The notes under the pieces were generated by a model. It did no database searches. It saw only the letters and a program-made list of their open reading frames with translations, and had not been told where the DNA came from. From positions 9,231 through 73,230 of the forward strand of contig NZ_CAMFKW010000010.1 of the NCBI RefSeq assembly GCF_945957345.1: DNA of 64,000 bases, in the 5' to 3' direction. Position numbers and translations under genes: made by a program. This DNA comes from an uncultured Bosea sp. Lineage in GTDB: Bacteria; Pseudomonadota; Alphaproteobacteria; Rhizobiales; Beijerinckiaceae. Shown here piece by piece: positions 1-49,125 of the stretch. Each line of letters begins with the position of its first letter. The first letter of the stretch is position 1.

Positions 1-1
1 C

Positions 2-463: not shown

Positions 464-467
464 GCCG

Positions 468-1385: not shown

Positions 1386-1396
1386 GGGGAACGCCG

Positions 1397-4225: not shown

Positions 4226-4227
4226 CC

Positions 4228-14797: not shown

Positions 14798-14831
14798 GCG
14801 AACCTGAAGAGATGCTGAGCGGAAAGACCGC

Positions 14832-15836: not shown

Positions 15837-16615
15837 CAGAGCGGCTTCCGCCAGGGTGCGAACCAGCCGAGCCCTTCGAGCGTGCCGGCTTCCGGTCGAT
15901 ATTCGCAGCCGACGAAGCCGTCATAGCCGAGACCGTCGAGCTCGGCGAACAGCGTCGGATAGTCAGGCCCCGAGGCATCCGGCTCGTGCCGGCCATTGGC
16001 GCGGGCGATCTGGACATGTCCGACGAGCGGATAGAGCGCCTTCAGCTTCGCCGAGACGTCGCCATGGATCAGTTCGCAATGATACATGTCGAATTGCAGC
16101 CGCACGTTCGGCCTGCCGGATTCGCGGACATAGGCCGCGGCCTGCTCGAAATCGTTGAGGAAATAGCCCGGCATGTCCTTGCCGTTGATCGGCTCCACCA
16201 GAAGGTCGATGCCCTGCTCGCCGAGCTTGTCGGCGGCGTAGGCCAGCGAAGCCCGATAGGTCTTCTGCGCGACGGGATCGTTGGGATCGGCGAGCCCCGC
16301 CATCATGTGCAGGCGCTTGACCCCGGTTTCATGGACGTAAGCCAGCGCGGTATCGACCGACGCCCGGAACTCGGCCTCGCGGCCTGCCAATGAGGCTATG
16401 CCGCGCTCGCCCTTGGCGAAATCGCCGGGCGGGAGATTATAGAGCGCCTGGGTGAGATTGCCTCCCGCCAGCGCAAGCCCGACCTGCTCGGGCGTATGCT
16501 CATAGGGGAAGAGAAACTCGACTGCCTCGAACCCCGCCTCGGCGGCAGCCTTGAAGCGGTCGAGGAATTCCCATTCGGTGAACATCATCGACAGGTTGGT
16601 GGCAAAACGCGGCAT
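15836..16615 (-). CDS. Hydroxypyruvate isomerase / 2-oxo-tetronate isomerase family
   Basis: MPRFATNLSMMFTE, LLVEPIN, FDMYH, GHVQIA, GRHEP and VGCEYRP. Its stop overlaps the glk start. Confidence 0.88.
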   Translation of the reverse strand: MPRFATNLSMMFTEWEFLDRFKAAAEAGFEAVEFLFPYEHTPEQVGLALAGGNLTQALYNLPPGDFAKGERGIASLAGREAEFRASVDTALAYVHETGVKRLHMMAGLADPNDPVAQKTYRASLAYAADKLGEQGIDLLVEPINGKDMPGYFLNDFEQAAAYVRESGRPNVRLQFDMYHCELIHGDVSAKLKALYPLVGHVQIARANGRHEPDASGPDYPTLFAELDGLGYDGFVGCEYRPEAGTLEGLGWFAPWRKPL

Positions 16616-16729
16616 GGAAATCTCTGCAGGCTGGGCACGATCGATCGCCACAGGCTAAACTGATGCGCCCGCCGCGTCATGGCCAAACGCGACAGGGAGG
16701 CAATGCGTTCCGCTACGGCCGTCCGGCCG

Positions 16730-17707
16730 TTACTTCCTCTCCGGCTTCGGCGGCGGGTTGGGATCGCTGGAGAAGCGCCGGAACACCATGTCGGGCGAGG
16801 ATGTGTTGTGGCGCGAATGCGTCGTGCGCCCCATCCAGATATCGGTCGCCCTGCCACCGGGATAGGACATCAGCGCCTCCTCGCGCCAGCCCTTGGCGCC
16901 GGGCTCGCGCAGCGCGATGCGGGCGACATCGTTGTTGAACTCGGTAACATACATCGAGCGCAGCGCCAGAAAGCCCTTGCCCCCCGTCACCGGCTTGTCG
17001 AGGACGGCATCGAGCACCATCCGGTTCTCGTCGACGCTGTCGAGCTTGAGGCTGCCGGATGAGCCGTCCTTGAAGCTGAGCTTGAAGGTCAGCGTCGCGG
17101 GATCGAACGCAATCTCCTTGATATTCACGACCGGGCGCCCCTCCTGCTCGATTGGCCCGAACAGGAAGGAGGAACCGTAGGACGAGAAACCGAGATGCTC
17201 CGGCGGCAGCGGCCGGGCGCGCCAGTTACCGTCCTGTGGATAGACGACGAGCACTTCGTGCGACTTGTCTTTGCCGAGCTTCCAGAGTTGGACGAGATGC
17301 AGGTTCTTCTCCACGCGGTCGCCGACGCGGAAGGTCGCCTCCGCCGGGCGCCAGAAGCTCGGGAAGGTGTAGCCGACCAGCCAGTAGTCGATCGATTCGT
17401 AGAAGGTGACGCGGCGCGGCGGCGTCGGCGGCGAGAAGGACGGATCGCCCTTCATGTCGCAATTCGTCCAGTCGGCATCCCAATTGTCGCGCACGAGCCC
17501 CGCGACATAGGCCGGATGCGCCGCCTCGATCTGGAAGCGCCTGACCTCGGGCGAGACCACCTTGATCGTGACATTGTCCTTCTCGGCGCAGAGCACCGGC
17601 TCGGATTCGTTCTTCACCTCGACGGCGACCTCGCCTGCTGCCCGCGCTATCGTCAGCGAGGCGAGAAGAGCGATGGAAACCGCGAGCGGGCGAAGAAGGC
17701 TGGTCAT
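16730..17707 (-). CDS. Secreted hypothetical protein
   Basis: Signal peptide MTSLLRPLAVSIALLASLTIARA, strong coding-like codon usage, no family recognised. Confidence 0.7.
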   Translation of the reverse strand: MTSLLRPLAVSIALLASLTIARAAGEVAVEVKNESEPVLCAEKDNVTIKVVSPEVRRFQIEAAHPAYVAGLVRDNWDADWTNCDMKGDPSFSPPTPPRRVTFYESIDYWLVGYTFPSFWRPAEATFRVGDRVEKNLHLVQLWKLGKDKSHEVLVVYPQDGNWRARPLPPEHLGFSSYGSSFLFGPIEQEGRPVVNIKEIAFDPATLTFKLSFKDGSSGSLKLDSVDENRMVLDAVLDKPVTGGKGFLALRSMYVTEFNNDVARIALREPGAKGWREEALMSYPGGRATDIWMGRTTHSRHNTSSPDMVFRRFSSDPNPPPKPERK

Positions 17708-17885: not shown

Positions 17886-18290
17886 ATGGGGCGATCGATG
17901 CAACCGCTGCTTCTCGGGGCCGGCGTGGTGATGGCGTTGACGGCACTGGTCCATTCGGTCGTCGGCGAGATCCTGATCTTCCGGCAACTGCGGAACGGCG
18001 GCATCGTTCCGACGCAAGGCGGCCCCTTGCTGAGAGAGCGTCATGTCCGGATACTCTGGGCAAGCTGGCATCTCGTCAGCATCCTCGGCCTGGCATTCGC
18101 CGCGATCTTGATCGCGATGGCGCAGACGCCAGGTGAGCCTCTGCCGAACACATGGCTGCTGAAGGTCACAATCGCCGGCACGCTTGCCGGCTCAGTGCTC
18201 GTGCTATTTGCGACGCGCGGCCGTCATCCCGGATGGCTCAGTCTGCTCGTGGCGGCGATCCTGGCCTGGCTCGGCAGCAGCAGCCTGTAG
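17886..18290 (+). CDS. Small multi-TM hypothetical membrane protein
   Basis: Four hydrophobic segments (ALVHSVVGE, WHLVSILG, HPGW). Converges on fkbM. Confidence 0.65.
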   Translation: MGRSMQPLLLGAGVVMALTALVHSVVGEILIFRQLRNGGIVPTQGGPLLRERHVRILWASWHLVSILGLAFAAILIAMAQTPGEPLPNTWLLKVTIAGTLAGSVLVLFATRGRHPGWLSLLVAAILAWLGSSSL

Positions 18291-18298
18291 AAGGAGCC

Positions 18299-19057
18299 TC
18301 AGCCCGTCAGGATGGCGTAGACATCGCCCGAATTGGCCTCATGCGGCAGGCTGCGCAGGTAATCGCCCATCGCCTCCGCGCTTGCCGGCTCGCCGAGTTC
18401 GAGCATCTGGCTCTCGCCGATCGCGACATTGAAACGATACGGGCCGAGCGTCTCCAACAGGACGAGGCAAGCCTCGGCGACGTCGCGCTGAATCGTCGTG
18501 AACTCGAAGGAGATCACCGGCACCACCTTGGTCAGGCCGGCCAGCACATGCGCTTCGAAGCCCTCGACATCGATCTTGAGCAGCTTCGGCAGGCCGTAGC
18601 GCTGGATCAAGCGATCGAGCGTCGTGCAGGGAACCGTGATCTCATGGTCCCATATCTGCCCTTCCCAGCCCCGAGCGCCCACGGCCGCGCCGATGAAGGC
18701 GGCCGACGCGGTCGAGACGGTCGGGTTCCGACTGTTGATCCGCAGTGCGATCGAGCCCTCATGGTCGCCGCAGGCCGCCTCGATCAGCATCACCAGCGGG
18801 TCCCGCCGATGGATCAGTCGCGTGACGCGGGCCGGCCCAGGCTGCGGCTCGAGCGCGACCACGCGCGCACCCAGCCGGCGGAAGGACGAGACCCGGTCGC
18901 CGACATGGGCGCCAATATCGAAAGCGAGATCGCCCGGCGCCAGGAACGCCCCGTAGAGCCGGTCCATCGCCGCGTTGCGCTCCTTGTCGCCGTGATAGAC
19001 ACGCAGCGAGCGCGAGAGCGCCTTCACCGTCCCCTTCGGATAGGTGACGGCGTTCAT
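18299..19057 (-). CDS. FkbM-family SAM methyltransferase
   Basis: FDIGAHVG, VALEPQP and LLKIDVEGFE. Its start overlaps the opgH stop (ATGA). Confidence 0.9.
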   Translation of the reverse strand: MNAVTYPKGTVKALSRSLRVYHGDKERNAAMDRLYGAFLAPGDLAFDIGAHVGDRVSSFRRLGARVVALEPQPGPARVTRLIHRRDPLVMLIEAACGDHEGSIALRINSRNPTVSTASAAFIGAAVGARGWEGQIWDHEITVPCTTLDRLIQRYGLPKLLKIDVEGFEAHVLAGLTKVVPVISFEFTTIQRDVAEACLVLLETLGPYRFNVAIGESQMLELGEPASAEAMGDYLRSLPHEANSGDVYAILTG

Positions 19058-20883
19058 GCCGCCTCAATGTCGCGGATCGCGGCCAACACCGGCGGCAGGT
19101 CGAAATCTTCGGGGACGCCGCAGAGCCCACGCCGCGCCAGCCAGGCGCCGCAAGCCGGCGCCGCCGTCAGCATGGCGAAGGGGATCGCCAGCACATAGCC
19201 CGCGGTCAAAGGCAGCGACCAGATCAGCACCGCAGGCGCCATCAGGCCCAGCGTGACGAACAGATAGGCCCCGAACAGCAGATGCGGCCACAGGCCCGCG
19301 AAGGCCGTCGCGAACGACAGGGCATGCACATCGCGCGCCTGCCCGTTCCAGCCGATCCTCGCCCGCCCGAAGGCGAGCCCGATCATGAACAGCGTGGTCC
19401 GAAAGCTCGACACGGCGCCTTGCAGGAACGAGAAGGCGAGTTCGATCGCAGCCGAGGTCAGGAAGCGCGCCTTGCCGCCATAGCGAACGACGCCACCCCG
19501 CGTGAGCAGGATGTCGGCGAAACCGGCGAGCTTGGGCGAGAGATACATCGCGAGGAACAGTAGATAGAGCCCGGCAGCCGTCACGATCGGATAATCGGCG
19601 ATCGCCCGATCCTCGAAGACCTTCAGCGGCAAGAGCGCGATCATCAGCGTCCAGGCCGGCAGGCCGAGGAACATCAGGATCGCCCAGATCAGCTGGAAGC
19701 GGCTCATCGGCTTGAGACCAGGGATATCGAGCAGCTTGAGATATTGCAGGTTGCCGAGGCACCAGCGCAGGTCGCGCTTGGCGAATTCGAGCATGGTCGG
19801 CGGGTTCTCCTCCCAGCTTCCGCCCTCGACCGGCAGCACCCGCACCTCGTAGCCGGCGCGGCGCATCAAGGTCGCCTCGACCTGGTCATGGCTCATCACC
19901 GCCCCGCCCAGAGGCGGCCCGCCGGGCAGCACCGGCAGATGGCAGTGATCACGGAACGGCGCGATCCGCACCAGCGCGTTATGCCCCCAGAATGGCCCGC
20001 AATCGCCGCCCCACCAGGCCGAACCCATGGTGTAGGGCCGCATGCCGTGGCGCATGCCGAACTGGAAGATGCGGGCGAAGGCCGAATTGCTGGGCATGCC
20101 GACCACGAGACTCTGCAGGATTCCGAGCTTCGGATGGGCCTGCATCATTCGGGCCATGCCGAGGATCGTCTCGCCTGCCATCACGCTGTCGGCATCGAGC
20201 GGCAACATCAATTCGTAACGCTCGCCCCAGTGTTCGCAGAAATCGCGGAGATTGCCGGCCTTGAAACCGGCATTGTCGCTGCGGCGGCGATAGGTCACCC
20301 GCGCCGGCTCGCCGATCTCGCGCGCCCAGGCTTCGGCCAGCCTTTTCTCGGCTTCGGCAACCGCCGGATCATTGCTGTCCGACAGCACGAAATAATCAAA
20401 CCAGACACCCGCGCCGGTCGCATCGAAGCTGTTCTTGACCACCTTGAGCCGGCGGAAGGCCCGCGCCGGGTCCTCATTGCGCAAAGTCATCAGCACGGCG
20501 GTGCGCAGGGTAAGCGGCGTCTCCTGCTCCCTGGCGGCGGCGAAGGGCGCGACCTCGGCAAGCCCTTCCGTCTTGCCGTGGAGGAGCCAGAGCCCGATCG
20601 CAGCGTTCCAGAAGCCGAGCACGGTCCAGGGCGCGCCGAACAGGAAGGCGATGAAGATCGCGACATCCGCGACACTCCAGCCGCCCGCACCGAGCACGCG
20701 CGCCAATCCGGCGAGCAGCAGGGCCAGGGTGACGAGATTCATGGCGAGGACAAGGAACCGCCGGCGGCGCAGCACCGTTTCCGCTTGCAGCCCGGCCGGG
20801 GTCAGGCCGTTCGGCCCGGCCTCTTGCGTCGCCCGCCGGAACGTGGTCGGAGCGGGACGCTGGTTCATGGCGGTCTCTGTCAT
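19054..20883 (-). CDS. opgH: Glucans biosynthesis glucosyltransferase OpgH/MdoH (GT2)
   Basis: RNEDP, FKAGN, LPLDADS, FWGHNALVR, SHDQVEA, WEENPP and KRDLRWCLGNLQ, with multiple TM segments. Confidence 0.88.
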   Translation of the reverse strand: MTETAMNQRPAPTTFRRATQEAGPNGLTPAGLQAETVLRRRRFLVLAMNLVTLALLLAGLARVLGAGGWSVADVAIFIAFLFGAPWTVLGFWNAAIGLWLLHGKTEGLAEVAPFAAAREQETPLTLRTAVLMTLRNEDPARAFRRLKVVKNSFDATGAGVWFDYFVLSDSNDPAVAEAEKRLAEAWAREIGEPARVTYRRRSDNAGFKAGNLRDFCEHWGERYELMLPLDADSVMAGETILGMARMMQAHPKLGILQSLVVGMPSNSAFARIFQFGMRHGMRPYTMGSAWWGGDCGPFWGHNALVRIAPFRDHCHLPVLPGGPPLGGAVMSHDQVEATLMRRAGYEVRVLPVEGGSWEENPPTMLEFAKRDLRWCLGNLQYLKLLDIPGLKPMSRFQLIWAILMFLGLPAWTLMIALLPLKVFEDRAIADYPIVTAAGLYLLFLAMYLSPKLAGFADILLTRGGVVRYGGKARFLTSAAIELAFSFLQGAVSSFRTTLFMIGLAFGRARIGWNGQARDVHALSFATAFAGLWPHLLFGAYLFVTLGLMAPAVLIWSLPLTAGYVLAIPFAMLTAAPACGAWLARRGLCGVPEDFDLPPVLAAIRDIEAA

Positions 20884-20922
20884 GGTAGGCAGACAGGCTC
20901 GGACAGACGGGATCGGACGCGA

Positions 20923-21942
20923 ATGGCGCGGGAGCTAAAGCCTGCAACACCGATTGACGCAAGGACAAAGGCTCTTGCGCTTTGGTATACAGCGCCCCGT
21001 GAATGCAACCTGAATGAGGTCACGCTGCCCACCCTCGGGCCGGAGGACTGCCTGCTCACCACGCTCTGGAGCGGTGTCAGCCGCGGCACCGAGCGATTGG
21101 TCTGCGAAGGCCGCGTGCCCTGCTCAGAGCACGAGCGCATGCGGGCGCCCTTCCAGGAAGGCAGTTTCCCGTTTCCGGTCAAATACGGCTATTGCGCCGT
21201 CGGGAGGATCGATGCCGGCCCGCAGGACATGCTCGGCCGCATAGCCTTCTGCCTTCACCCGCATCAGGACCGCTTCGTCGCGCCGCGCGACAGGCTCGTC
21301 CCGGTGCCGGAGGACGTTCCCGCCCGCCGCGCCATCCTTGCCGCCAACATGGAGACGGCGCTCAACGCCCACTGGGACGCCGGCTCCGGCCCCGGTGACA
21401 GGATCGTGATCGTCGGGGGCGGCGTCCTCGGCCTGCTGGTCGCCTGGCTGGCCGCTCGATTGCCCGGGGCAGACGTCACGCTTGTCGATGTCGAGCCAAG
21501 CCGGGCTCCTCTCGCCGCAAATCTTGGCGTCAACTTCTCACCGCCCGATGCCGCGCCGCGCGACGCCGACATCGTCTTCCATGCCAGTGCGACGGCAGCC
21601 GGTCTCACGACCGCTATCGCCGCAGCCGGCACCGAGGCGCGCATCGTCGAGCTGAGCTGGTATGGCGAAGGCGCCGTTCCCGCCCCGCTCGGCGGCGCCT
21701 TCCATGCCCGCCGCCTGCAACTCGTCTCCTCGCAGGTCGGCCTGGTCTCGGCATCCCGCCGCGCACGTTGGAGCTATGCCCGCAGGGCTGAAGCCGCCAT
21801 GGCCCTGCTGATGGACGACAGGCTCGATGCGCTGATCACCGACGAGATCGCCTTCAACGAGCTGCCACAGCGTCTGCCCGGTCTGCTCGCGCCCGGCGCG
21901 GCTGGCCTGACCGCCGCGATTTGCTATGAAACGCGGCCCTGA
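20923..21942 (+). CDS. MDR-superfamily (zinc-binding-type) dehydrogenase
   Basis: VSRGTER, FPVKYGYCAVG, CLHPHQD, AILAANMETALN and IVGGGVLG. The 5' extension in the ORF track is the opgH antisense shadow. Confidence 0.85.
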   Translation: MARELKPATPIDARTKALALWYTAPRECNLNEVTLPTLGPEDCLLTTLWSGVSRGTERLVCEGRVPCSEHERMRAPFQEGSFPFPVKYGYCAVGRIDAGPQDMLGRIAFCLHPHQDRFVAPRDRLVPVPEDVPARRAILAANMETALNAHWDAGSGPGDRIVIVGGGVLGLLVAWLAARLPGADVTLVDVEPSRAPLAANLGVNFSPPDAAPRDADIVFHASATAAGLTTAIAAAGTEARIVELSWYGEGAVPAPLGGAFHARRLQLVSSQVGLVSASRRARWSYARRAEAAMALLMDDRLDALITDEIAFNELPQRLPGLLAPGAAGLTAAICYETRP

Positions 21943-21978
21943 CCGGGCCGCATCGCCAACCCATCTCCGGGAGATCGC

Positions 21979-22380
21979 ATGTTTTCCGTCGAAGTCCGCG
22001 ACCGCATCATGATCGGCCATTCCCTGCCCGATCCCTTCTTCGGTCCGGCGCAGAACATGCACGGCGCCACCTTCGTGGTCGATGTCGCCTTCTTCCGGGA
22101 GACGCTGAACCGGCAGAACGTCGTCGTCGATATCGGCGCGGCGCTCGACACCCTCGCTGAGACGCTGAAGCCTTTGAAGTACCAGAACCTCGACGCTCTC
22201 CCGCAATTCGCGGGCGTGCTGACCACCACCGAATTCCTCTGCAAGCACATCTTCGACGCCATGGCGGCGGCGGCGAAATCCGGCGCGCTGGGCGCCGATG
22301 GCACAGGACTGAGCAAAATTCGCGTGACCCTTCACGAAACCGACCTCGCTCGCGCCAGCTACGAGGGCGCGCTCGCGTGA
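21979..22380 (+). CDS. 6-pyruvoyl-tetrahydropterin synthase fold (COG0720) protein, atypical subfamily
   Basis: IGHSL..FFGPAQNMHGATF and C-terminal VTLHET. It lacks the QueD CxxxHGH motif. GGGAGA RBS. Confidence 0.85.
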   Translation: MFSVEVRDRIMIGHSLPDPFFGPAQNMHGATFVVDVAFFRETLNRQNVVVDIGAALDTLAETLKPLKYQNLDALPQFAGVLTTTEFLCKHIFDAMAAAAKSGALGADGTGLSKIRVTLHETDLARASYEGALA

Positions 22381-23441
22381 GCGGCATCGTCTTCGCCATC
22401 CCCGGCGATATCGACGCGCCTACCGGCGGCTACGGCTATGACCGACGCCTCCTGCGCGAGTGGCGCGAGGCGGGCATCGAAGCCCGACACCTCGCCCTGC
22501 CCGGCTCCTTCCCCTTCCCGACGGCCGAGAATCTCGCGGCGACGGAACAGCTCCTCGCAGCGACCGCATCCGACGACACCCTGCTCGTCGACGGCCTCGC
22601 CTATGGCGCCTTCCCGGAAGCGCTCACGGCACGTTTCGCGGATCGACTGGTCGCGCTGGTGCATCATCCGCTGGCGCTGGAAACGGGCCACAGTCCGGAA
22701 GCCTCCGAGAAGCTGCGGCGGAGCGAAACGCTGGCGCTCAGCAGTGCACGCGCCGTCATCGTCACCAGCCCTGCAACGAAGCTGACGCTGGAAGCGGAAT
22801 TCGAAGTCCCCGCCAACAAGATCGCCGTCGCGATTCCCGGCACCGATTCGGCGCCGCGCGCTCAGGGGTCCGGACGCCGCGAAGCGCTGCACATGCTCGC
22901 GGTCGGCTCGCTCATTCCCCGCAAGGGATACGGCTTCCTCGTCGATGCTTTGGCGTCGATCGCGGACCGGCCCTGGACGCTGACCATCGCCGGCTCGCCC
23001 GATCACGCGCCAGCAACGGCAGCCGACTTGCGTAACAGCATCGCCCGCGCGGGCCTCGCGGACCGCATTGCGATGACGGGCGGCGTGGGAGCGGACAGGC
23101 TCGCCCAACTCTATGACGAGTCTGATCTTTTCATCATGTCGTCGCTCTACGAAGGCTACGGCATGGTGCTGACCGAGGCGCTGGCGCGCGGCCTGCCGAT
23201 CGTCACCACGCTGAGCGGCGCCGGCGCCGAGGCGCTGCCCGATGCCGCCGCCCTCAAGGTGCCACCCGGCGACGCTGCGGCACTTGCCAAGGCCCTCGCG
23301 AGGCTGATTGATGCGCCGGCAGAGCGTCGGCAGCGTGCCGATGCCGCGTGGGCCGCAGCCGGTGATCTGCCGCGTTGGAGTGAGACCGCGCGCATCGTCG
23401 CGCAGGCCTGCCTGCACGACGGCGGCCGAAAGGTGGGATAA
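22377..23441 (+). CDS. Glycosyltransferase family 4 (GT-B)
   Basis: TGGYGYDRRL, LVHHPL and SSLYEGYGMVLTEALARGLP (E-x7-E). Start overlaps the PTPS stop (GTGA). Confidence 0.9.
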   Translation: MSGIVFAIPGDIDAPTGGYGYDRRLLREWREAGIEARHLALPGSFPFPTAENLAATEQLLAATASDDTLLVDGLAYGAFPEALTARFADRLVALVHHPLALETGHSPEASEKLRRSETLALSSARAVIVTSPATKLTLEAEFEVPANKIAVAIPGTDSAPRAQGSGRREALHMLAVGSLIPRKGYGFLVDALASIADRPWTLTIAGSPDHAPATAADLRNSIARAGLADRIAMTGGVGADRLAQLYDESDLFIMSSLYEGYGMVLTEALARGLPIVTTLSGAGAEALPDAAALKVPPGDAAALAKALARLIDAPAERRQRADAAWAAAGDLPRWSETARIVAQACLHDGGRKVG

Positions 23442-24280
23442 TGGCTGGTTTCTCTCCGGAATGGCTCGCATTGCGCGAGCCGGCGGATCATGCGGCACGC
23501 AACCCGCAGGTTCTCGCGGCGGTTGGCGGCTATTTCGCCGACAAGACCTCGCTCTCGGTGCTCGATCTCGGTTGCGGTGCCGGCTCCAACCTGCGCGCGA
23601 CCTATGCGGCCCTGCCCGATCGCCAGCACTGGACGCTCGTCGATCACGATGCCGACCTGCTTGCCTTCGCCCGTGAGCGCCTTGCCGATTGGGCCGACGA
23701 GGCGCGCGAGCAGGGCGAGGAGCTCGTGCTCGCCAAGGACAGCAAGTCGATCACGGTCGACACCCGCAAGGTCGACCTGAACACCGATCTCGAATGGGTA
23801 CTGGGCTGGCAACCCGACCTCGTCACCGCTGCCGCGCTGTTCGACCTCGCCTCGAAGCGCTGGATCGAACGCTTCGTCGCGGCGCTCGCCAGCCAGCACC
23901 TGCCGCTCTACGCCGTGCTCACTCATGACGGCCGCGAAGCCTGGCTGCCGGAGCATCCGGCCGATGCCGGCATCCATGCCGCCTTCACCGGCCACCAGCA
24001 TCGCGACAAGGGCTTTGGCCCCGCCGCCGGCCCGGAGGCTACCGAGATCATGGCGGAAGCCTTCCGGAAGTCGGGCTTCGCGGTTTCGAGCGGGGACAGC
24101 AACTGGCTGCTCGACGCGAAGCGCCGCTCCTTGCAGGAAGCGCTCGCCGAAGGCATCGCTGCAGCCGTTGGCGAGACCGATCGCCTGGATGCCAGGACGA
24201 TCTCGGAATGGCTCGCGGCACGGCGCGAGGCGCAGTCCGCGATGATCGGCCATCAGGACCTCTGGGCCCGGCCGATCTAG
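23441..24280 (+). CDS. Class I SAM-dependent methyltransferase
   Basis: WLALREPADHAAR and VLDLGCGAGSN. Start overlaps the GT stop (TAATG). Confidence 0.85.
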   Translation: MAGFSPEWLALREPADHAARNPQVLAAVGGYFADKTSLSVLDLGCGAGSNLRATYAALPDRQHWTLVDHDADLLAFARERLADWADEAREQGEELVLAKDSKSITVDTRKVDLNTDLEWVLGWQPDLVTAAALFDLASKRWIERFVAALASQHLPLYAVLTHDGREAWLPEHPADAGIHAAFTGHQHRDKGFGPAAGPEATEIMAEAFRKSGFAVSSGDSNWLLDAKRRSLQEALAEGIAAAVGETDRLDARTISEWLAARREAQSAMIGHQDLWARPI

Positions 24281-24287
24281 GAAAGCG

Positions 24288-24851
24288 CTACTTCGCCCAA
24301 GGCAGCATCCGCCGCATCACGCCGTCTTTGAGGATCAGGTAGTGGTGCAGCGCCGCGCCGATATGCACGAGCGCAAGCGCGCCGGTCGCCAACGCAAGCT
24401 TGCCATGGATGGAGAGCACCCGCTTGGCCGCCTCTTCGTTGGGCTTGGCCAGCGCCGGCAGGTCGAACAGGTCGAAGATCGTCAGCGCCGGAAACAGCGA
24501 CACCCCGATCCAGCCCAGCAGCGGCACGACGATGAGCAGCCCATAGAGCAGCCAATGCACGAGATGCGAGGCCGCCTTCTGCCACCAGGCCAGCGTCGGC
24601 TCGTCCGGCGGCGCGCCGTGCACGAGCCGATAGGCGAGCCGTCCGACCATCAGCCAAAGCAGCAGAAACCCGGTGAGCTTATGCGCGCTGTAGAGCCCGT
24701 TGGTCAGCCCGTCCCAGATATCTAGCACATTGCCGCGATAGCTCATCGTAAGGCCGACCGGGATCATCACCAGAACCGCAGCCACCGCGATCCAATGCAA
24801 CGTCCGGGCGACCGGGCTGTAGGCGCGGGTTGCCGGCATTTCGCCCTGCAT
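24288..24851 (-). CDS. Cytochrome b561 (di-haem cytochrome b)
   Basis: RTLHW, AHKLTG, SHLVHWLLY, HGKLA and HIGAALHHY, with four TM helices. Confidence 0.88.
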   Translation of the reverse strand: MQGEMPATRAYSPVARTLHWIAVAAVLVMIPVGLTMSYRGNVLDIWDGLTNGLYSAHKLTGFLLLWLMVGRLAYRLVHGAPPDEPTLAWWQKAASHLVHWLLYGLLIVVPLLGWIGVSLFPALTIFDLFDLPALAKPNEEAAKRVLSIHGKLALATGALALVHIGAALHHYLILKDGVMRRMLPWAK

Positions 24852-24916
24852 CGGAAAGCCTCCTATCCTGCGGCCTGAGTGATATTCATCTCACGTTCAA
24901 GCCTATGCGCCCATAG

Positions 24917-24941
24917 GACGGCGAGACGCTCCGGAAGTTCC
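24917..24941 (-). promoter_or_regulatory. Candidate sigma-EcfG (general stress response) promoter for cytochrome b561
   Basis: Minus strand reads GGAAC-N16-CGTC; the consensus is GGAAC-N16/17-CGTT. Confidence 0.45.
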
Positions 24942-24986
24942 CGTTTTTGTTTGCCGCCGGACACCATCTGACGTGGTTTTGATCAT

Positions 24987-25012
24987 GGAACCTGCACTGT
25001 CCCGGCCACGTT
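24987..25012 (+). promoter_or_regulatory. Sigma-EcfG-type promoter upstream of GTP cyclohydrolase II
   Basis: GGAAC-CTGCACTGTCCCGGCCA-CGTT is an exact GGAAC-N17-CGTT match. Confidence 0.65.
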
Positions 25013-25106
25013 GCTGGCAGAGTGCACTGCAACGCCCTATATCGATACCCGATGGTGCCCTGGATGCTCCTCGGCCGGTCGCCGGCCCAATCTGACGGAC
25101 TTTTCG

Positions 25107-26234
25107 ATGCCTGAGTCGCGTACGCTCTTCGGCCCATCCCTCCAGACGGATCTCGTGAAGGTCGAACGCGCGATCGCCGAGTTTCGCGCTGGTCGGCCCG
25201 TGCTGCTTCGCGATGGCGAGCGGCTGGCGCTCGCCCTCTCCGCAGAGCTGGCCGACGCTGAACTCGCGCACCGCTTCGACACACTCGCGCAGGGGCGCGG
25301 TCATCTCGTGCTCAGCGCCGCACGTCTGCGCCGCCTCGGCGCCAAGGGGCGCCTTGAGACCGGCATCTTCGCCTTGCCGACCATCGACACCGCCCGCATC
25401 GAAACGCTCGCGCTCAAGATCGACGGCCGTATGGACGCACCCGTCGCCCCGGCTTCAGCGCTGGATGAGGCTGCGCTGGAACTGGCGCGGCTGTCGCTCG
25501 TGCTGCCTGCGGTGATCCTCGTGTCGGTGAGTGCCGAGGCGGTCGCGAACGAGCCGCTCGTCGAGGTCGTCATCGCCGCCGTGAACGGCTACCGCGCCGA
25601 GCAGGCCGCGACGCTCAAGATCGTCGGCCGTGCGCCGGTGCCGCTCGAGGGCGCGCCCGACACCGAGTTCGTCGTCTTCCGCGGCGGCGAAGGCCTGCGC
25701 GACCAGGTCGCGATCATCGTCGGCAAGCCCGATCTGGCGGCGGCCGTGCCTGTGCGCCTGCATTCGGCCTGCCTGACGGGGGATCTCTTCGGCTCGCTGA
25801 AATGCGATTGCGGCGATCAGCTCCGCGAGACCGTGCAGTGGATGGCAGAGAACGAGGGCGGCGTCCTGCTCTATCTGGACCAGGAAGGCCGCGGCAACGG
25901 CATCTCCAACAAGATGCGGGCCTACAAGCTGCAGAGCCAGGGCTGGGACACCTACGATGCCGACGAGGTGCTCGGTTTCGATCTCGACCAGCGCCATTTC
26001 GACTTCGCCGCGACCATGCTGACGCAACTCGGCGTCTCCCGCGTTGTCGCGCTGACCAACAACCCGCAGAAGATCGGTGCGATCGAGGCAGCAGGTCTCG
26101 AGGTCGCCGCGACCCAGCGCGTGCTCGGTCGTCCGAACGCGCATAATGTCCGCTATCTCGCCTCCAAGCGCGACCGTGCCGGGCATTTCATCGACATGGA
26201 CGCGCTGATGGCGCGCGCCGCGCCGACGGATTGA
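25107..26234 (+). CDS. ribA: GTP cyclohydrolase II with degenerate RibB-like N-terminal domain
   Basis: Zn motif HSACLTGDLFGSLKCDCGDQL, DQEGRGNG, KMRAYKLQ and LTNNPQK. N-terminus ERAIAEFRAGRPVLL is RibB-like. Confidence 0.88.
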   Translation: MPESRTLFGPSLQTDLVKVERAIAEFRAGRPVLLRDGERLALALSAELADAELAHRFDTLAQGRGHLVLSAARLRRLGAKGRLETGIFALPTIDTARIETLALKIDGRMDAPVAPASALDEAALELARLSLVLPAVILVSVSAEAVANEPLVEVVIAAVNGYRAEQAATLKIVGRAPVPLEGAPDTEFVVFRGGEGLRDQVAIIVGKPDLAAAVPVRLHSACLTGDLFGSLKCDCGDQLRETVQWMAENEGGVLLYLDQEGRGNGISNKMRAYKLQSQGWDTYDADEVLGFDLDQRHFDFAATMLTQLGVSRVVALTNNPQKIGAIEAAGLEVAATQRVLGRPNAHNVRYLASKRDRAGHFIDMDALMARAAPTD

Positions 26235-26265
26235 CCGCGGGCTCGTTTGCGATCAGGCCTGGCCG

Positions 26266-28659
26266 ATGCCCGAGCCCGACAAGACCCTGCTCGACAGTCC
26301 GGGACGCTGGCCGCTCGCCAGCGTCTGCGCGATCGTGTTCATCGCCTGGCTCGCCTTGTCCTGGCCCTGGCTGTCGGGCACCGTCACCATTCCCTGGGAC
26401 GCCAAAGCGCATTTCCATCCGCAGCTCCAGTTCCTCGCCGATGCCTGGCACAAGGGCCTCTCGCCCTTCTGGACGCCCTATGTCTTTTCCGGTTCGCCGC
26501 AAGTCGCCGATCCGCAATCTCTAATCTTCTCGCCCTCCTTCGCCTTGATCGCCGCGCTGAACCCCGCTCCCGATTTCCGCTGGAGCGACGGCGCCCTGCT
26601 CGGCACCTTGCTGCTCGGCGCACTCGCGATCGTCGTGATCTTCCGCGACCGCGGCTGGCATCCGGCCGGTGCCGTCGTCGCCGCCCTCTCCTTCGCTTTC
26701 GGCGCGGCCGCAGCCTGGCGCATCCAGCATGTCGGGCAGGTCCTGAGCCTCAGCTATTTCGCGATCACGCTGTTCCTGCTCTCGCGGGCGCTGGAACGCG
26801 GCTCGATCGGCTATGGCTTCGCCGCCGGCATCATCTCAGGCTTCATGGTTCTGGGCCGTGATCAGGTCGCGCTTCTTGGCGTCTATGTGCTCGCCGGCCT
26901 CACCATCACCGCGATCCTGATGGCGCAAAGCCCTTGGCGCGCTTTCCGCGCCAGCCTGCCGCCGCTCATCGCCGGCACGGTCGGCGCCATTCTGGTTGCT
27001 ACGATCCCGATCCTGCTGACCGCCTTCATCGCGCAGGAATCGAACCGTCCCGCCATCGATTTCGTCGAGGCCGGCAAGGGCTCGCTCCACCCGGCGGCCC
27101 TGCTGACCGGGCTCTTCGCCAATCTCTATGGCGCGGCCGGCCCGCTCGCCGATTTCTGGGGTGCACCGAGCCCGGCCTGGGAAGCGCGCTTCGGCCCGCT
27201 CAGCCTCTTCCTCGCCCGCAACATGAGCCAGCTCTATCTCGGCCTGCTGCCGATGGGCCTGATCCTCACCATCGGCTTCGTCCGCGGCGCGCTCTGGCGA
27301 CGCGAGATCGTCCCACTCACCGTCGCGGCGATCGTCGTCCTGCTCTTCGCGCTCGGCCGCTATACGCCGGCCTTCAGGGTGCTGTTCGAGCTGCCCGGCA
27401 TCAGCTTCTACCGCCGCCCGGCCGACGCTCTCTTCATTCTCGGCGCCCTGCTCGCCCTGCTCGGCGGCTACCTGACCCATCTCGTCATGACGGGAGCCGC
27501 TCCGAAGGCGCGACCCTGGCAGATCGCGCTCGAGGCCCTGATCTTCATCGGCGCGCTCGCGCTTGCGCTCTGGCTGGCCTGGACGGTCGGGCGCATCCCT
27601 GTCGCGATCATGCCCCTCGTCATGGCCGCGCTATGCGGAATGCTCTCGCTCGGTAGCCTCGTCGCCGCTCACGGCCTGGCGAAGCGGGGCTCCGTGCTCG
27701 CCGCGACCTTGATTCTCGCCGCGACGCTGACCATCGACCTCGCGGTCAATAACGGCCCGAGCGAGTCCACCGCCCTGCCCGCGCAAACCTATGATGTGCT
27801 GCGCAAGGACAGCACCAACGACACCATCGCCCTTTTGAAGCGCGAGACGGCCCGCACCATGGCGCCTGATCGGCGCGACCGCATCGAACTCGCCGGCATC
27901 GGCTTCCACTGGCCCAATGCCAGCCTCGTCCACGATCTCGACAACACGCTGGGTTACAACCCGCTCCGGCTCGGCCTCTACACTAAGGCGACCGGCGCCG
28001 GTGACCATGTCGCCCTGCCCGACCAGCGCACCTTCTCCCCGCTGATGCCGGGCTATCGCTCGTTGCTCGCCGACATGCTCGGCCTGCGCTTCATCGCGAC
28101 CGGCGTCCCCGTCGAGGAGATCGACAAGCGCCTCAAGCCCGGCGACCTCAAGCAGATCGCCCGCACCAAGGACGCCTTCGTCTACGAGAACCCGCGCGCC
28201 CTGCCCCGTGTGCTGCTCGTCCCGCAGGCGCAGACGGCCGATTTCGATGCGATCCTGGCAAGCGGGCAATGGCCCCAGGGCTTCGACCCCACCCGGACCG
28301 CGCTGCTGGACCACGCCGTACCTCCGCCTCTCCCGAGCCCGGCCCTGCCGCTGCTGGACCGGGGCGGCCGCGAGCTACCCGGGTCGGCCCGGATCGTCGA
28401 CTACGGCACGACGCAGGTCCTGCTCGAAGCCGATGCGCCGCGCGGCGGCTATCTCGTGCTCAACGATGTCTGGCACCATTGGTGGCAGGTCGAGATCGAC
28501 GGCCAGCCCGCCGAATTGCTGCGCGCCAACGTCCTGTTCCGTGCTGTCGTCGTGCCGCCCGGCAAATCGACGGTGCGCTTCGTCTTCCGTCCGCTGGACG
28601 GGCTCTGGCACGATATCGTCGCCTATCTGCGCAAGCCTCAGGCAAGGCAGCCGGGCTAG
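26266..28659 (+). CDS. YfhO-like polytopic membrane protein (putative GT-C fold glycosyltransferase)
   Basis: More than 10 TM segments; PFWTPYVFSGSPQVADPQSLIFSP loop; C-terminal GYLVLNDVWHHWWQVEIDG...ANVLFRAV typical of YfhO-type proteins. Confidence 0.65.
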   Translation: MPEPDKTLLDSPGRWPLASVCAIVFIAWLALSWPWLSGTVTIPWDAKAHFHPQLQFLADAWHKGLSPFWTPYVFSGSPQVADPQSLIFSPSFALIAALNPAPDFRWSDGALLGTLLLGALAIVVIFRDRGWHPAGAVVAALSFAFGAAAAWRIQHVGQVLSLSYFAITLFLLSRALERGSIGYGFAAGIISGFMVLGRDQVALLGVYVLAGLTITAILMAQSPWRAFRASLPPLIAGTVGAILVATIPILLTAFIAQESNRPAIDFVEAGKGSLHPAALLTGLFANLYGAAGPLADFWGAPSPAWEARFGPLSLFLARNMSQLYLGLLPMGLILTIGFVRGALWRREIVPLTVAAIVVLLFALGRYTPAFRVLFELPGISFYRRPADALFILGALLALLGGYLTHLVMTGAAPKARPWQIALEALIFIGALALALWLAWTVGRIPVAIMPLVMAALCGMLSLGSLVAAHGLAKRGSVLAATLILAATLTIDLAVNNGPSESTALPAQTYDVLRKDSTNDTIALLKRETARTMAPDRRDRIELAGIGFHWPNASLVHDLDNTLGYNPLRLGLYTKATGAGDHVALPDQRTFSPLMPGYRSLLADMLGLRFIATGVPVEEIDKRLKPGDLKQIARTKDAFVYENPRALPRVLLVPQAQTADFDAILASGQWPQGFDPTRTALLDHAVPPPLPSPALPLLDRGGRELPGSARIVDYGTTQVLLEADAPRGGYLVLNDVWHHWWQVEIDGQPAELLRANVLFRAVVVPPGKSTVRFVFRPLDGLWHDIVAYLRKPQARQPG

Positions 28660-30302: not shown

Positions 30303-31163
30303 TCAGGCCAGCGCACCCATCGCCGCGATCGGCTGGACGGGGAGCCCGTCCAGCACCTTGGCGAGGCCGGCCGGTTCGACCTCCCCGCCGCGCATCGTCT
30401 CGTCGCGGTGGATGCCACCGGCAATGAACAGGCTATCGAAGCCCATCAGGCGCGCGCCGGCCAAATCGGTGCGCACGGCGTCGCCGATCACCAGCACCTT
30501 GCCGGGCTCGACCGAACGGCCGCCCCGCGCATCGGCCGCTGCCGCGAGCGCGAGGTCATAGGCCGGGCGATAGGGTTTGCCGGCCCAGGCGACGGAGCCA
30601 CCGAGCTGCTCGTAGATCGTCGCGAGCGCGCCAGCGCAGGGCAGCAGGTCCTCGCCGACATGCACGACGAGATCGGGATTGCCGCAGATGAAGGGCAGGC
30701 CGCGCCGGGCGAAGCGCTCCAATAGCGGCCGATACTGCTCCGGCGTCTCGGTGCGGTAGTCGTTGAGCTCGGTCGCGACGACGATATCGGCCTTGTCCTC
30801 GTCGACCAGCTCGACATCGAGACCCTCGAAAACGGCCCGATCGCTCTGCCAGCCGATATGATAGGCGCGCTTGTGGTGGCTTTGCGCGATCAGCGCACGC
30901 GTCACGTCGCCGGAGGTGACGAGCCGGTCCCAGGCCTCGCGCGGCACGCGCTTGGCGTCGAGCAGTCCGGCGACCTGCTGCGACGGCCCCGGCGCATTCG
31001 AGAGCAGCACCACCGTGCCGCCGCGCTCGCGGAAGGCCATCAGCGCGTCGCAGGCCGGCTCCAGAGCCCAGAGCCCGTCATGCACGACGCCCCAGACATC
31101 GCTGATCAGCACATCGTAGCCGGCGAGGAGATCGCCCGCCCGCTTCAGAACCCGCACGTTCAT
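30303..31163 (-). CDS. HAD-superfamily subfamily IIA hydrolase
   Basis: DVWGVVHDG, LLSNAP, GKPY and IGDAVRTDLAGA. Confidence 0.88.
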   Translation of the reverse strand: MNVRVLKRAGDLLAGYDVLISDVWGVVHDGLWALEPACDALMAFRERGGTVVLLSNAPGPSQQVAGLLDAKRVPREAWDRLVTSGDVTRALIAQSHHKRAYHIGWQSDRAVFEGLDVELVDEDKADIVVATELNDYRTETPEQYRPLLERFARRGLPFICGNPDLVVHVGEDLLPCAGALATIYEQLGGSVAWAGKPYRPAYDLALAAAADARGGRSVEPGKVLVIGDAVRTDLAGARLMGFDSLFIAGGIHRDETMRGGEVEPAGLAKVLDGLPVQPIAAMGALA

Positions 31164-32101
31164 CAGGACCGCGCCTCCGCGGCGATGCGCGCCTCGACAT
31201 CGGCGCGGCGCGGCAGCGGCGCCACCGCCCCATAGCCCAGCGTCGACAAGGCCGCCGCGACATTGGCATAGGCACCGGCCGCGAAGGCATCGCCCGTGCG
31301 CAGATACTCGGCGAGGAAGGCGCCGTCATAGCAATCGCCCGCACCGGTCGCGTCGATCGCATCGACCTTGATCGGCCGGAACCGCTCACGCCGCACCGGC
31401 GTCGCCACCAGCGAACCCTCATGGCCGAGCGTCAGCGCGACCACGCGCGCGCCGAGCCCGAGATAGAAATCGACGATGGCGTCGGGATTGTTCAGGCCCG
31501 TGAGCTGCGTCGCGTCGTCGAGGCCGGGCAGGATGATGTCGGCCATGGCGCAGGCGGCATGAATGATCGCCTTGGCCCGGGTCAGCGGCCAGAGCTTCAG
31601 GCGCAGGTTGGTGTCATATGCGGTGAGCACGCCGGCCTTGCGCGCGGTGTCGAAAGCCTCGAACACGGCATCGCAGGCGCTGGCCGAGATCGCCTGGCTG
31701 ATGCCGGAGGCCTGGATGATCCGTGCGGAACGGATCAGGTCGCGCGGCAGGTCGCGCGGCCCGTAGAGGCTCGCGGCCGAGCCGGCACGCAGATAGGAGA
31801 AGACGTGGCCGGAAGGGCCGTGATCGACGAAATAGAGCCCGGTCGGCGCGCTCGGATGGGTGGCGACATGCGTGTCGTCGACGCCTTCGCGCTTCCACAG
31901 GCCACGGATCGAATGCCCGGCGCTGTCATCGCCCAGCGCCCCGAGATAGCCGACCGACATGCCCTGCCGCGCCGCCGCGACCGCGCAGTTCGAGGTATCG
32001 CCGCCATGGCCGAACAGGAAGCCGCCGCTCTCGGCGTGGGTCGCGTTGAACTCGCCGAGCGGTTCGCCGAGGCAAAGGAGATCGAAGCGGCTGTCGGTCA
32101 C
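31163..32101 (-). CDS. PfkB-family sugar kinase (KdgK-like)
   Basis: GGDTSNCAVAAARQG, YDTNLR and DATGAGDCYDGAF. Translationally coupled to the HAD gene. Confidence 0.85.
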   Translation of the reverse strand: MTDSRFDLLCLGEPLGEFNATHAESGGFLFGHGGDTSNCAVAAARQGMSVGYLGALGDDSAGHSIRGLWKREGVDDTHVATHPSAPTGLYFVDHGPSGHVFSYLRAGSAASLYGPRDLPRDLIRSARIIQASGISQAISASACDAVFEAFDTARKAGVLTAYDTNLRLKLWPLTRAKAIIHAACAMADIILPGLDDATQLTGLNNPDAIVDFYLGLGARVVALTLGHEGSLVATPVRRERFRPIKVDAIDATGAGDCYDGAFLAEYLRTGDAFAAGAYANVAAALSTLGYGAVAPLPRRADVEARIAAEARS

Positions 32102-48966: not shown

Positions 48967-49125
48967 CCGCTCCTTCCCTCCCTTGACCCTGGGTGAGGAC
49001 GGGCAGTCTCAAATGCTTGCCCTCGCCCTTCCCCACTGGCAGAGAGGGGAAAGGTTCGCGCCGCAGCGGTGACGACGTGGGCCAGCCGTTGCCCGTCACC
49101 ATCCTGTTCAGAACCCGCGGCCTCC

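Follow-up and report, generated by a model that had tools for sequence, protein, structure and literature searches.

What brings a GTP cyclohydrolase II (RibA), an atypical homolog of 6-pyruvoyltetrahydropterin synthase (PTPS) and OpgH, a membrane glucosyltransferase of osmoregulated periplasmic glucan (OPG) synthesis, together between positions 18299 and 28659 of a stretch of 64,000 nucleotides (the window) from an uncultured Bosea sp. (contig NZ_CAMFKW010000010.1)? An initial annotation had proposed a dedicated pathway in which a GTP-derived metabolite is glycosylated, methylated and directed to the envelope. This proposal received strong comparative support and was partly upheld as a whole: at a probability of roughly 0.55, the locus is considered the Bosea version of a conserved orphan cluster, the PTPS-IV cluster, that makes a dedicated GTP-derived, glycosylated and methylated compound and hands it to the envelope. 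Confidence in any specific product structure is much lower. The main new result is that two membrane modules found beside the soluble enzymes of this cluster, one with opgH and the other with a CDP-alcohol phosphatidyltransferase, are mutually exclusive and substitute for each other.

The gene set was obtained by listing and translating the open reading frames (ORFs), cross-checked by independent gene calls on an identical metagenome contig, and the genes were assigned to families by Pfam and NCBIfam profile searches. All genes, coordinates and couplings named in the initial annotation were borne out by the ORFs, the gene calls and both profile libraries. Proteins encoded in the window share 84-98% identity with Bosea proteins, which places its origin in a Bosea species (Hyphomicrobiales). 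The principal features of the window, which has a G+C content of approximately 67%, are as follows.

18299..19057, minus strand: FkbM-family S-adenosylmethionine (SAM) methyltransferase (PF05050, 63 bits; TIGR01444, 83 bits)
19054..20883, minus strand: short-form OpgH/MdoH, family 2 glycosyltransferase (GT2) membrane glucosyltransferase (NF003963, 933 bits, cutoff 884; PF13632, 53 bits)
20884..20922, no strand: opgH/MDR divergent intergenic region, the gap between opgH and the MDR-PTPS operon
20923..21942, plus strand: NAD(P)-dependent oxidoreductase of the medium-chain dehydrogenase/reductase (MDR) fold, without zinc ligands (weak ADH_zinc_N and BchC-like matches only)
21979..22380, plus strand: PTPS-IV (SCO6650-family) T-fold protein (PF01242, 72 bits, cutoff 22)
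22377..23441, plus strand: family 4 glycosyltransferase, GT4 (PF13692, 100 bits; PF00534, 93 bits)
23441..24280, plus strand: class I SAM-dependent methyltransferase (PF13649, 28.2 bits, gathering score 27; PF08242, 27.5 bits, below the cutoff of 30)
24288..24851, minus strand: cytochrome b561, a diheme membrane cytochrome, convergent on the methyltransferase (PF01292, 82 bits)
25107..26234, plus strand: RibA, long-form GTP cyclohydrolase II, 375 aa (NF006456, 506 bits, cutoff 464; PF00925, 161 bits)
26266..28659, plus strand: polytopic membrane protein of GT-C-like (PMT_2/YfhO-like) type that has a large domain at its C terminus (PMT_2, 26.7 bits, gathering score 26.1)

The fkbM and opgH genes overlap by 4 bp and are translationally coupled; the start of the MDR gene and the longest start of opgH are 39 bp apart. 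The PTPS and GT4 genes overlap by 4 bp and the GT4 and methyltransferase genes by 1 bp. The PF00925 gene, ribA, lies 2.7 kb downstream of the PTPS gene, and the gene for the polytopic protein begins 31 bp 3' of ribA. No fol or que gene and no rib gene other than ribA was found among the approximately 45 ORFs tested over the 64 kb, the ribD deaminase, ribE, ribH and ribB included, in agreement with the initial annotation. No riboswitch of any kind, including the FMN riboswitch, was matched by Rfam in the 64-kb window, and promoter and terminator consensus scans of the window remained at chance level, with no sigma-70 consensus match in the opgH/MDR gap.

The PTPS-IV operon and its recurrent partners

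The Bosea PTPS carries the motif FGPAQ, found within FFGPAQNMHGATF at residues 20-32, which is the named signature of the PTPS-IV subfamily of COG0720 (PMC5445326). A representative search of a clustered protein library returned 1,107 PTPS-IV relatives, and an alignment of 33 diverse members showed the near-invariant motifs IAHS..FGPAQ.LHGAT, NLD, TTTE and ES. Family profiles matched SCO6650 of Streptomyces coelicolor (3D7J) over the full length with E = 1e-59 and 2e-57, the second-best PDB match reaching only 1e-8. In alignments of the family with E. coli QueD and with the PTPS of rat and human, the catalytic Cys was found to be replaced by Pro/Ala within FGPAQ, the zinc motif HGH had become HGA, so that the third zinc His was gone, nearly invariantly in the 33 members, and the Asp-His pair had become Asn-Tyr ('LDH' to 'NY' before NLD). 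The Glu of TTTE was retained. In T-fold enzymes this Glu anchors the 2-amino-4-oxopyrimidine ring. The SCO6650 structure paper reportedly describes a protein without zinc and without PTPS activity but with a pterin-compatible pocket. The Bosea protein shares with SCO6650 the FGPAQ motif, the profile match and the losses of catalytic residues, and by these sequence features it belongs to the published, uncharacterised PTPS-IV/SCO6650 subfamily; its description as atypical in the initial annotation was well placed.

RefSeq names the PTPS-IV orthologues '6-carboxytetrahydropterin synthase', with a queuosine gene ontology term, and the cluster MDR 'zinc-binding alcohol dehydrogenase' (loci L086-L093 of the survey described below). 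Judged by their residues, both names conflict with the proteins that bear them, as the PTPS is without the catalytic Cys and zinc triad and the MDR without zinc ligands. This naming and the presence of a Pfam PTPS domain would speak for QueD (6-carboxytetrahydropterin synthase) or a biopterin/folate PTPS, a reading that retains almost no credibility: the QueD model TIGR03367 gave 31 bits for the Bosea protein against a cutoff of 89, the catalytic Cys, third zinc His and Asp-His pair are replaced throughout the family, and no queC, queE, queF, folE or fol gene was found in the window or in nine annotated plasmid loci. The QueD/folate reading of the PTPS gene was rejected on these motif and context grounds. 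The queuosine annotation of these genes in RefSeq is probably wrong and being propagated, and it is correctable.

Published PTPS-IV neighborhoods contain PF00925 and PF01872 (supplement of PMC5445326), which matches the mention in the initial annotation of a COG0720 subgroup that clusters with ribA and has no known product. PF00925 is GTP cyclohydrolase II (RibA); the same supplement mislabels it 'FolE2/GTP cyclohydrolase I', and a figure legend in PMC5041015 glosses FolE2 as 'GTP cyclohydrolase II'. The RibA link of PTPS-IV has been obscured because of this mislabeling. Solitary PTPS-IV paralogues were also seen on two Streptomyces plasmids (L085 and L090), near genes for a cupin, a MEKHLA protein, an MBL-fold hydrolase, a BTAD regulator and an ECF sigma factor.

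For the neighborhood survey, one genome per species was scanned with a 12-sequence PTPS-IV alignment, and 80 loci from Alpha-, Beta- and Gammaproteobacteria were kept with 10-kb flanks. The nine annotated plasmid loci and one 6-Mb contig (L095) were added, giving 90 loci, including Actinobacteria. Relatives of the window genes were located by tblastn, and all ORFs were clustered to reveal partners not present in Bosea. Many of the loci are truncated contigs and the counts are therefore lower bounds; in a full-flank subset of 58 loci, 6 kb or more of sequence was available on either side of the PTPS gene. The loci are not phylogenetically independent of one another, and related Hyphomicrobiales contribute many of them.

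The MDR, GT4 and methyltransferase genes were found in 79/90, 77/90 and 71/90 loci, respectively. A RibD_C-type reductase (PF01872, 142 bits), absent from the Bosea window, was present in 55/90 loci, and opgH was present, divergent and upstream of the MDR gene, in 54/90; FkbM (33/90), cytochrome b561 (28/90) and ribA (27/90) were less frequent. In the full-flank subset, opgH was adjacent in 32/58 loci and ribA in 24/58. The chance of finding a given single-copy gene less than 10 kb away is well under 1% of genomes (a rough estimate, not a computed value), and the co-location of opgH and ribA with the PTPS-IV operon exceeds it. These findings show that the MDR, PTPS-IV, GT4 and methyltransferase genes form a nearly invariant, deeply conserved unit. 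They also demonstrate, through a survey anchored on the PTPS as the initial annotation had advised, that the core operon, ribA and opgH co-occur in other genomes.

The MDR family (72 members) has SRGTE and YGY at the zinc-ligand positions, where zinc MDRs normally have CGSD and GHE (the Cys in GxCxSD, then His-Glu), and it has the GxGxxG Rossmann motif. Its best NCBIfam match was BchC (56 bits, below cutoff), its Pfam match to ADH_zinc_N reached 20.8 bits against a cutoff of 31.8, with no ADH_N match, and its nearest PDB relatives were iditol, sorbitol and galactitol-1-phosphate dehydrogenases, all weak. BchC acts by oxidizing the 1-hydroxyethyl side chain carried by a heteroaromatic ring. Among solved structures, those closest to the GT4 protein were sucrose-phosphate synthase, MshA, BshA and PimB (64 to 32 bits), enzymes that glycosylate small phosphorylated polyols, small acids or phosphatidyl-polyols. 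The likeness to MshA, BshA and PimB stops there, as the scores are low, there is no orthology, and no inositol-phosphate synthase or thiol-pathway genes are linked as in the mycothiol, bacillithiol and phosphatidylinositol mannoside pathways. No informative NCBIfam or PDB relative was found for the class I methyltransferase. The loci with a linked cytochrome b561 include plasmids of Agrobacterium, Rhizobium and Thiodictyon.

Alignment to 2BZ0 and a multiple alignment showed that Bosea RibA keeps the E. coli zinc ligands Cys54, Cys65 and Cys67 as well as Tyr105, confirming the intact zinc motif noted in the initial annotation, and that its N-terminal half is a degenerate domain resembling 3,4-dihydroxy-2-butanone 4-phosphate (DHBP) synthase. 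This long form, of 344-394 aa and with a degenerate N-terminal half, is shared by nearly all cluster-linked RibAs, and every proteobacterial one retains the zinc cysteines and Tyr105. The ribA gene joins the cluster in at least five different arrangements across Alpha-, Beta- and Gammaproteobacteria.

ribA after cytochrome b561: Bosea, Rhabdaerophilum, Alsobacter and Azorhizobium (Hyphomicrobiales)
ribA heading the MDR operon: Paracoccus and a Palleronia plasmid
ribA after GT4/RibD_C: Betaproteobacteria, a Caulobacteraceae genome and L095
ribA divergent from MDR, with a CDP-alcohol phosphatidyltransferase: Agrobacterium and Rhizobium plasmids
ribA downstream of the cluster: Xanthomonas

On the Palleronia plasmid, ribA, MDR, PTPS, methyltransferase and RibD form one co-directional string. 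These findings show that ribA is a genuine, recurrent partner of the cluster, dispensable-looking plasmid copies included, and the copies carried with the cluster on plasmids of Agrobacterium and Rhizobium suggest that outside Bosea there are dedicated copies of ribA.

The RibD_C gene is usually convergent and directly follows the methyltransferase gene; its product has approximately 230-270 aa with a short N-terminal extension (for example in L008, L013, L023, L088 and L089). Its highest scores were to the models for the RibD C-terminal domain and for bacterial RibD, closely followed by that for archaeal pyrimidinone reductase, all three below cutoff. Proteins of the RibD_C fold reduce ribosylaminopyrimidines, and the fold also includes dihydropterin reductases such as DmrA. 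In Rhabdaerophilum, a close relative of Bosea, the gene lies between b561 and ribA; loss or relocation of RibD_C in the Bosea lineage is indicated.

The only full Streptomyces cluster examined, on plasmid p1 of S. fungicidicus (L086, 12645-14138), has a short RibA with Met at the position of Tyr105, divergently paired with a creatininase-family gene whose ArfB match is weak (37 bits) and whose best model is MftE-like. The creatininase family is that of the archaeal deformylase ArfB. The Met variant SCO6655 is said to stop at the formylated intermediate. Together, Met-RibA and the creatininase would provide a two-step route, like the ring opening in the archaeal ArfA/ArfB/ArfC variant of the riboflavin pathway, to the diaminopyrimidine nucleotide that proteobacterial RibA would make in one step. 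Because the one-step and two-step routes would meet at this compound, the diaminopyrimidine nucleotide or its reduced form is pointed to as the entry compound. The Bosea cluster differs from that of S. fungicidicus in having Tyr rather than Met in RibA, no creatininase partner, and OpgH where the latter has a CDP-alcohol phosphatidyltransferase. Next in line in L086 is a beta-lactamase-fold 'serine hydrolase', of the enzyme class of Caulobacter EstG.

OpgH and an alternative membrane module

The gap between opgH and the MDR gene, measured between longest ORFs, was at most approximately 165 bp in 44/45 related loci, and the divergent pair was kept from Hyphomicrobiales to Methylophilaceae and Alcaligenaceae. 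The link to opgH drawn in the initial annotation thus holds as an adjacency conserved in Alpha- and Betaproteobacteria. Other lineages, namely Rhizobiaceae (Agrobacterium, Rhizobium), Xanthomonas, Thiodictyon (Chromatiales), Microbacterium and Streptomyces, have an alternative module. Its components are a CDP-alcohol phosphatidyltransferase (68 bits to PF01066; among NCBIfam models PgsA matched best, below cutoff), an MprF-type flippase domain (LPG_synthase_TM, PF03706, 104-125 bits) and, at several loci, a membrane protein with the annotation 'sulfatase'. Among the 58 full-flank loci, 32 have opgH divergent from MDR, nine have the CDP-alcohol phosphatidyltransferase set, none has both and 17 have neither. 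If the modules were independent, approximately five loci with both would be expected, and the hypergeometric probability of finding none is approximately 3e-4 (our own estimate, for loci that are phylogenetically non-independent). These findings show that the opgH and CDP-alcohol modules are mutually exclusive and replace each other beside the same soluble enzymes, indicating that the product of these enzymes is passed to an envelope-facing membrane enzyme. FkbM accompanies whichever membrane module is present, and for this reason it is a cluster member and not an accessory of OpgH; in Rhizobium sp. SL42, ribA, the CDP-alcohol transferase gene and fkbM lie in one string, without opgH.

In the 64-kb Bosea window, no CDP-alcohol transferase, flippase or sulfatase-like gene of this module was detected by tblastn. 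A membrane protein encoded at 49069-50163 (plus strand) matched LPG_synthase_TM at a sub-threshold 25.7 bits (gathering score 33.4) and had no tblastn kinship to the cluster-type flippase domain of the other lineages.

No OpgG-like gene was recognized among the window ORFs tested. In Caulobacter, a short-form OpgH is essential, standard OPG assays fail and there is no direct evidence of OPG synthesis, and the authors of that work suggest 'unique chemistry' (PMC11389396). They hold that an 'undiscovered OPG pathway' must exist (PMC11389396; bioRxiv 10.1101/2022.04.12.488081), and neither report mentions the genes neighboring opgH. In a Caulobacteraceae metagenome-assembled genome (L063) and in L095, MDR-PTPS-GT4 and opgH are arranged head-to-head, with RibD_C and ribA coming after GT4, and the PTPS-IV operon is therefore a candidate for the missing Caulobacter-type OPG chemistry.

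The link of PTPS-IV to RibA and RibD_C was already known from the published work. What appears to be new is the complete set of genes, the alternation of the membrane modules and the association with an OpgG-less OpgH: in the literature searched, no description was found of a PTPS-IV cluster linked to OpgH or to a phospholipid-type module, and searches for links among OpgH, PTPS, GTP cyclohydrolase II and CDP-alcohol transferase, for Caulobacter locus tags near opgH and for SCO6650/6655 returned nothing relevant. The genes inventoried in the initial annotation all stand; it had missed the RibD_C reductase, the CDP-alcohol/flippase module and the independence of FkbM from OpgH.

A proposed pathway and its alternatives

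In the pathway proposed here, RibA would open GTP to 2,5-diamino-6-ribosylamino-4(3H)-pyrimidinone 5'-phosphate, an activity predicted from the enzyme class and the residues found. In most lineages a RibD_C-type reductase would act next, giving the ribityl form or reducing a dihydropterin-type ring; in Bosea, without RibD_C at the locus, this step would be supplied in trans or skipped. PTPS-IV may bind the intermediate through its kept Glu and catalyze a zinc-free rearrangement or ring closure. A precedent would be the chlamydial bypass, in which RibA plus TrpF lead to dihydroneopterin phosphate. That bypass starts from the GTP cyclohydrolase II product (PMC4161248); its helper, TrpF, is a TIM-barrel isomerase and its product goes on into folate synthesis. 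In the PTPS-IV cluster, a T-fold protein would take the helper's place, and no folate genes are linked. The zinc-less MDR, resembling BchC and polyol dehydrogenases, may oxidize or reduce the side chain, the GT4 enzyme would add a sugar, and the class I methyltransferase would methylate the product. In Bosea and in most Alpha- and Betaproteobacteria, short-form OpgH and FkbM would handle this product, to which Hyphomicrobiales would add the GT-C-like and an exported protein. The moiety would prime or decorate a periplasmic glucan in OpgH-type genomes, and in Rhizobiaceae, Xanthomonas, Chromatiales and Actinobacteria the CDP-alcohol module would make it a phospholipid head group. If the product is redox-active, cytochrome b561 may be its partner in electron exchange. 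A compound of the ribitylaminopyrimidine/lumazine type and a pterin formed by rearrangement and ring closure of the RibA product would both fit.

The cluster has in common with the early riboflavin pathway a bona fide GTP cyclohydrolase II and, for the majority of lineages, a RibD_C-fold reductase, but it is without a deaminase domain, RibB activity, RibH, RibE or an FMN riboswitch, and it couples to GT4, methyltransferases and membrane enzymes. A GTP-derived heterocycle with a glycosylated side chain is also found in the pterin glycosides of cyanobacteria and Chlorobium (biopterin glucoside, cyanopterin, which has a methylated sugar, and limipterin), made with a group-1 glycosyltransferase; those pathways start at GTP cyclohydrolase I, use a catalytically complete PTPS and have cytoplasmic products. 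In E. coli, OPGs are synthesized by OpgGH, receive phospholipid head groups through OpgB/OpgE and are substituted by OpgC. Bosea has an OpgH equivalog, and the CDP-alcohol module of the other lineages resembles the donation of phospholipid head groups to glucan. The differences are that OpgG/OpgD was not recognized among the window ORFs tested and that the Bosea OpgH is of the short form, as in Caulobacter. We know of no OPG substituent that derives from GTP.

Several points weigh against this pathway. Every enzymatic step after RibA is inferred, no product being known for any member of the cluster, and a remark in one paper, based on unpublished data, connects PTPS-IV with F420 synthesis in archaea and not with the envelope (PMC5041015). 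The solitary PTPS-IV paralogues of L085 and L090 have no MDR, GT4 or methyltransferase neighbors; since they sit in an unrelated context, the subfamily has at least one other use. In Bosea itself, RibD_C is absent from the window and from four Bosea genome loci, and ribA is set apart from the operon by the convergent b561 gene; by its sequence this ribA is a catalytically canonical equivalog, and it may be the housekeeping copy or also feed riboflavin synthesis. Envelope coupling is not universal in cis, 17/58 full-flank loci being without either membrane module, and the 'sulfatase' of the alternative module matched PF00884 at only 16-23 bits, below threshold. The divergent adjacency of opgH could partly be inherited synteny, because the loci are phylogenetically non-independent.

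In one alternative explanation, the neighbors share no job, and an OpgH-FkbM pair making ordinary glucan, a housekeeping RibA and an unrelated MDR-PTPS-GT4-methyltransferase operon stay together by inherited synteny. The position of an equivalog-level RibA with all catalytic residues beyond a convergent gene would fit this, as would the presence of ribA within 10 kb in only 27/90 loci, the loci without a membrane module and the inflation of counts by the shared ancestry of the Hyphomicrobiales loci. This explanation may hold for Bosea itself but is thought unlikely overall, since ribA occurs in at least five gene orders, within three classes of Proteobacteria, and is also plasmid-borne in Agrobacterium, Rhizobium and Palleronia, where in the last case it heads the same operon; RibD_C is present in 55/90 loci without other obvious reason, the opgH-MDR pair is widely conserved, and OpgH and the CDP-alcohol module interchange. 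In another, quite unlikely alternative, the pathway ends primarily in a new head group of a phospholipid or glycolipid: the heterocyclic polyol-phosphate would be joined to CDP-diacylglycerol, glycosylated as by PimA or MshA, flipped and kept as a membrane lipid, with OpgH secondary and the lipid genes lying elsewhere in OpgH-type genomes. Clusters of six genera (Agrobacterium, Rhizobium, Microbacterium, Streptomyces, Thiodictyon and Xanthomonas) do contain the CDP-alcohol phosphatidyltransferase and the flippase domain (125 and 104 bits), and PimB and MshA are among the nearest structures to the GT4 protein. None of the three module genes is in the 64-kb Bosea window, however, and the module never occurs with opgH in cis, which fits substitution better than co-operation. 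No such heterocyclic head-group lipid is known to us. The lipid-head-group reading is a variant of the envelope pathway proposed above, and it may represent the ancestral state.

Decidedly unlikely as well, and if anything a shade more so, is an alternative early branch of riboflavin or F420 synthesis, in which RibA, RibD_C and PTPS-IV together make 5-amino-6-ribitylaminouracil phosphate in the archaeal/fungal order, PTPS-IV serving for example as the missing pyrimidine deaminase, with GT4, methyltransferase, MDR and OpgH as bystanders. Besides the F420 remark (PMC5041015), the published PF00925 and RibD_C neighborhoods (PMC5445326) and the sub-cutoff matches of the RibD_C member to RibD and archaeal pyrimidinone reductase would favor it. 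So would L095, in which cofH, a gene for an F420-dependent oxidoreductase, cofE, a nitroreductase-like gene, cofD and cofC (positions 1-4457) lie 3-9 kb upstream of opgH and the divergent MDR-PTPS-GT4 genes, an arrangement that echoes the published remark. Against it, F420 genes lie beside the cluster in only 1/91 loci, and the supposed bystanders MDR, GT4 and methyltransferase (79, 77 and 71 of 90) accompany PTPS-IV more often than ribA and RibD_C do (27 and 55 of 90). Moreover, the PTPS, GT4 and methyltransferase genes are translationally coupled in Bosea, the Bosea operon persists without the reductase, and no ribH, ribE or ribB was found nearby among the window ORFs.

A bolder and rather doubtful form of the envelope pathway would make the product a redox-active pterin- or lumazine-like glycoside that is exported, tethered to the envelope and linked by b561 to the quinone pool, a new periplasmic or membrane cofactor; it would be attached to OpgH-made cyclic glucans in Alpha- and Betaproteobacteria, or serve as a phospholipid head group in the CDP-alcohol lineages. 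If true, such a tethered glycoside would supply what is missing from the 'undiscovered OPG pathway' in Caulobacter-like bacteria, and it could explain both the essentiality of short-form OpgH and the escape of its product from standard OPG assays. For PTPS-IV/SCO6650, an orphan since its structure was deposited, the survey defines a conserved gene set wired to envelope machinery and narrows the search for a product to the periplasm and the lipids. If a glucan or phospholipid bears a GTP-derived moiety, this would represent a new class of envelope decoration or cofactor, carried by plant-associated, methylotrophic, marine and actinobacterial lineages.

Accessory genes and surroundings

Three further genes of the window, one on the fkbM side of the locus and two beyond the polytopic protein, were considered with the cluster.

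16730..17707, minus strand: exported protein 'hyp325', unknown fold, without Pfam or NCBIfam match
30303..31163, minus strand: HAD-IIA phosphatase, possible accessory (TIGR01459, 136 bits)
31163..32101, minus strand: PfkB-family sugar kinase, possible accessory with weak evidence

The exported protein was found in 19/90 loci, beside opgH-fkbM and in Hyphomicrobiales only, and is likely to be an accessory cluster member. It has approximately 2,800 homologues, one source naming it 'conserved exported hypothetical protein', and in its family one pair of Cys and many Trp, Asp and Arg residues are invariant. Its AlphaFold model is all-beta and confident (pLDDT 84, pTM 0.82), and no PDB fold match to it was found (best TM below 0.2); a role as an OpgG analogue was considered and found to be unsupported, the confident model being without a PDB match. 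Between this gene and fkbM, an ORF of 130 aa at 17898-18290 (plus strand), with about four hydrophobic segments as judged by eye, was also among the gene calls for the identical contig and has conserved counterparts in 12 loci.

The polytopic protein matched PMT_2 over residues 109-246, barely above threshold, and YfhO at 19.7 bits (threshold 28.5) at its C-terminal tip only; no PDB sequence relative was found. Its 11 loci in the survey are all from Hyphomicrobiales, some of them without an adjacent ribA. HAD-IIA phosphatase homologues were found in 13 loci, near the cluster at a different position, and Rhodobacterales clusters have an inositol-monophosphatase-family gene instead. A PfkB kinase gene closes the Palleronia plasmid cluster and is otherwise rare near the cluster.

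Upstream of the cluster, at 13751-16651 (minus strand), lie genes for an Acyl_transf_3 membrane acyltransferase, a glucokinase and an AP_endonuc_2/xylose-isomerase-like protein. Acyl_transf_3 is the family of the OPG succinyltransferase OpgC. The glucokinase and isomerase-like genes recur beside the cluster in other Bosea loci, and the genes of this segment may belong to the glucan side of the locus. On the other side, the segment 33586-43429 encodes envelope integrity protein A (EipA), an inositol-monophosphatase-family protein (35023-35856), a ChpT-like histidine phosphotransferase, CheA, CheB and an OmpR-type regulator, followed by the flagellar genes for FliI, FlhA, FliG, FliF and FlgD; the inositol-monophosphatase-family gene, 6 kb off, may be unrelated to the cluster. 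A search of sequencing runs yielded one probable RNA run, with a low share of 0.13, besides 19 entries of the metagenome or DNA kind.

At a number of loci of the Hyphomicrobium type and of Betaproteobacteria, a gene for a 600-aa ABC exporter with fused ABC_membrane and ABC_tran domains lies a few kb away from the cluster (L013, L018, L019, L025, L026, L030, L031, L055, L066, L070, L073 and L074, and not in the Bosea window). This exporter, which may be an export component, has a short second RibA encoded beside it in several Hyphomicrobium loci.

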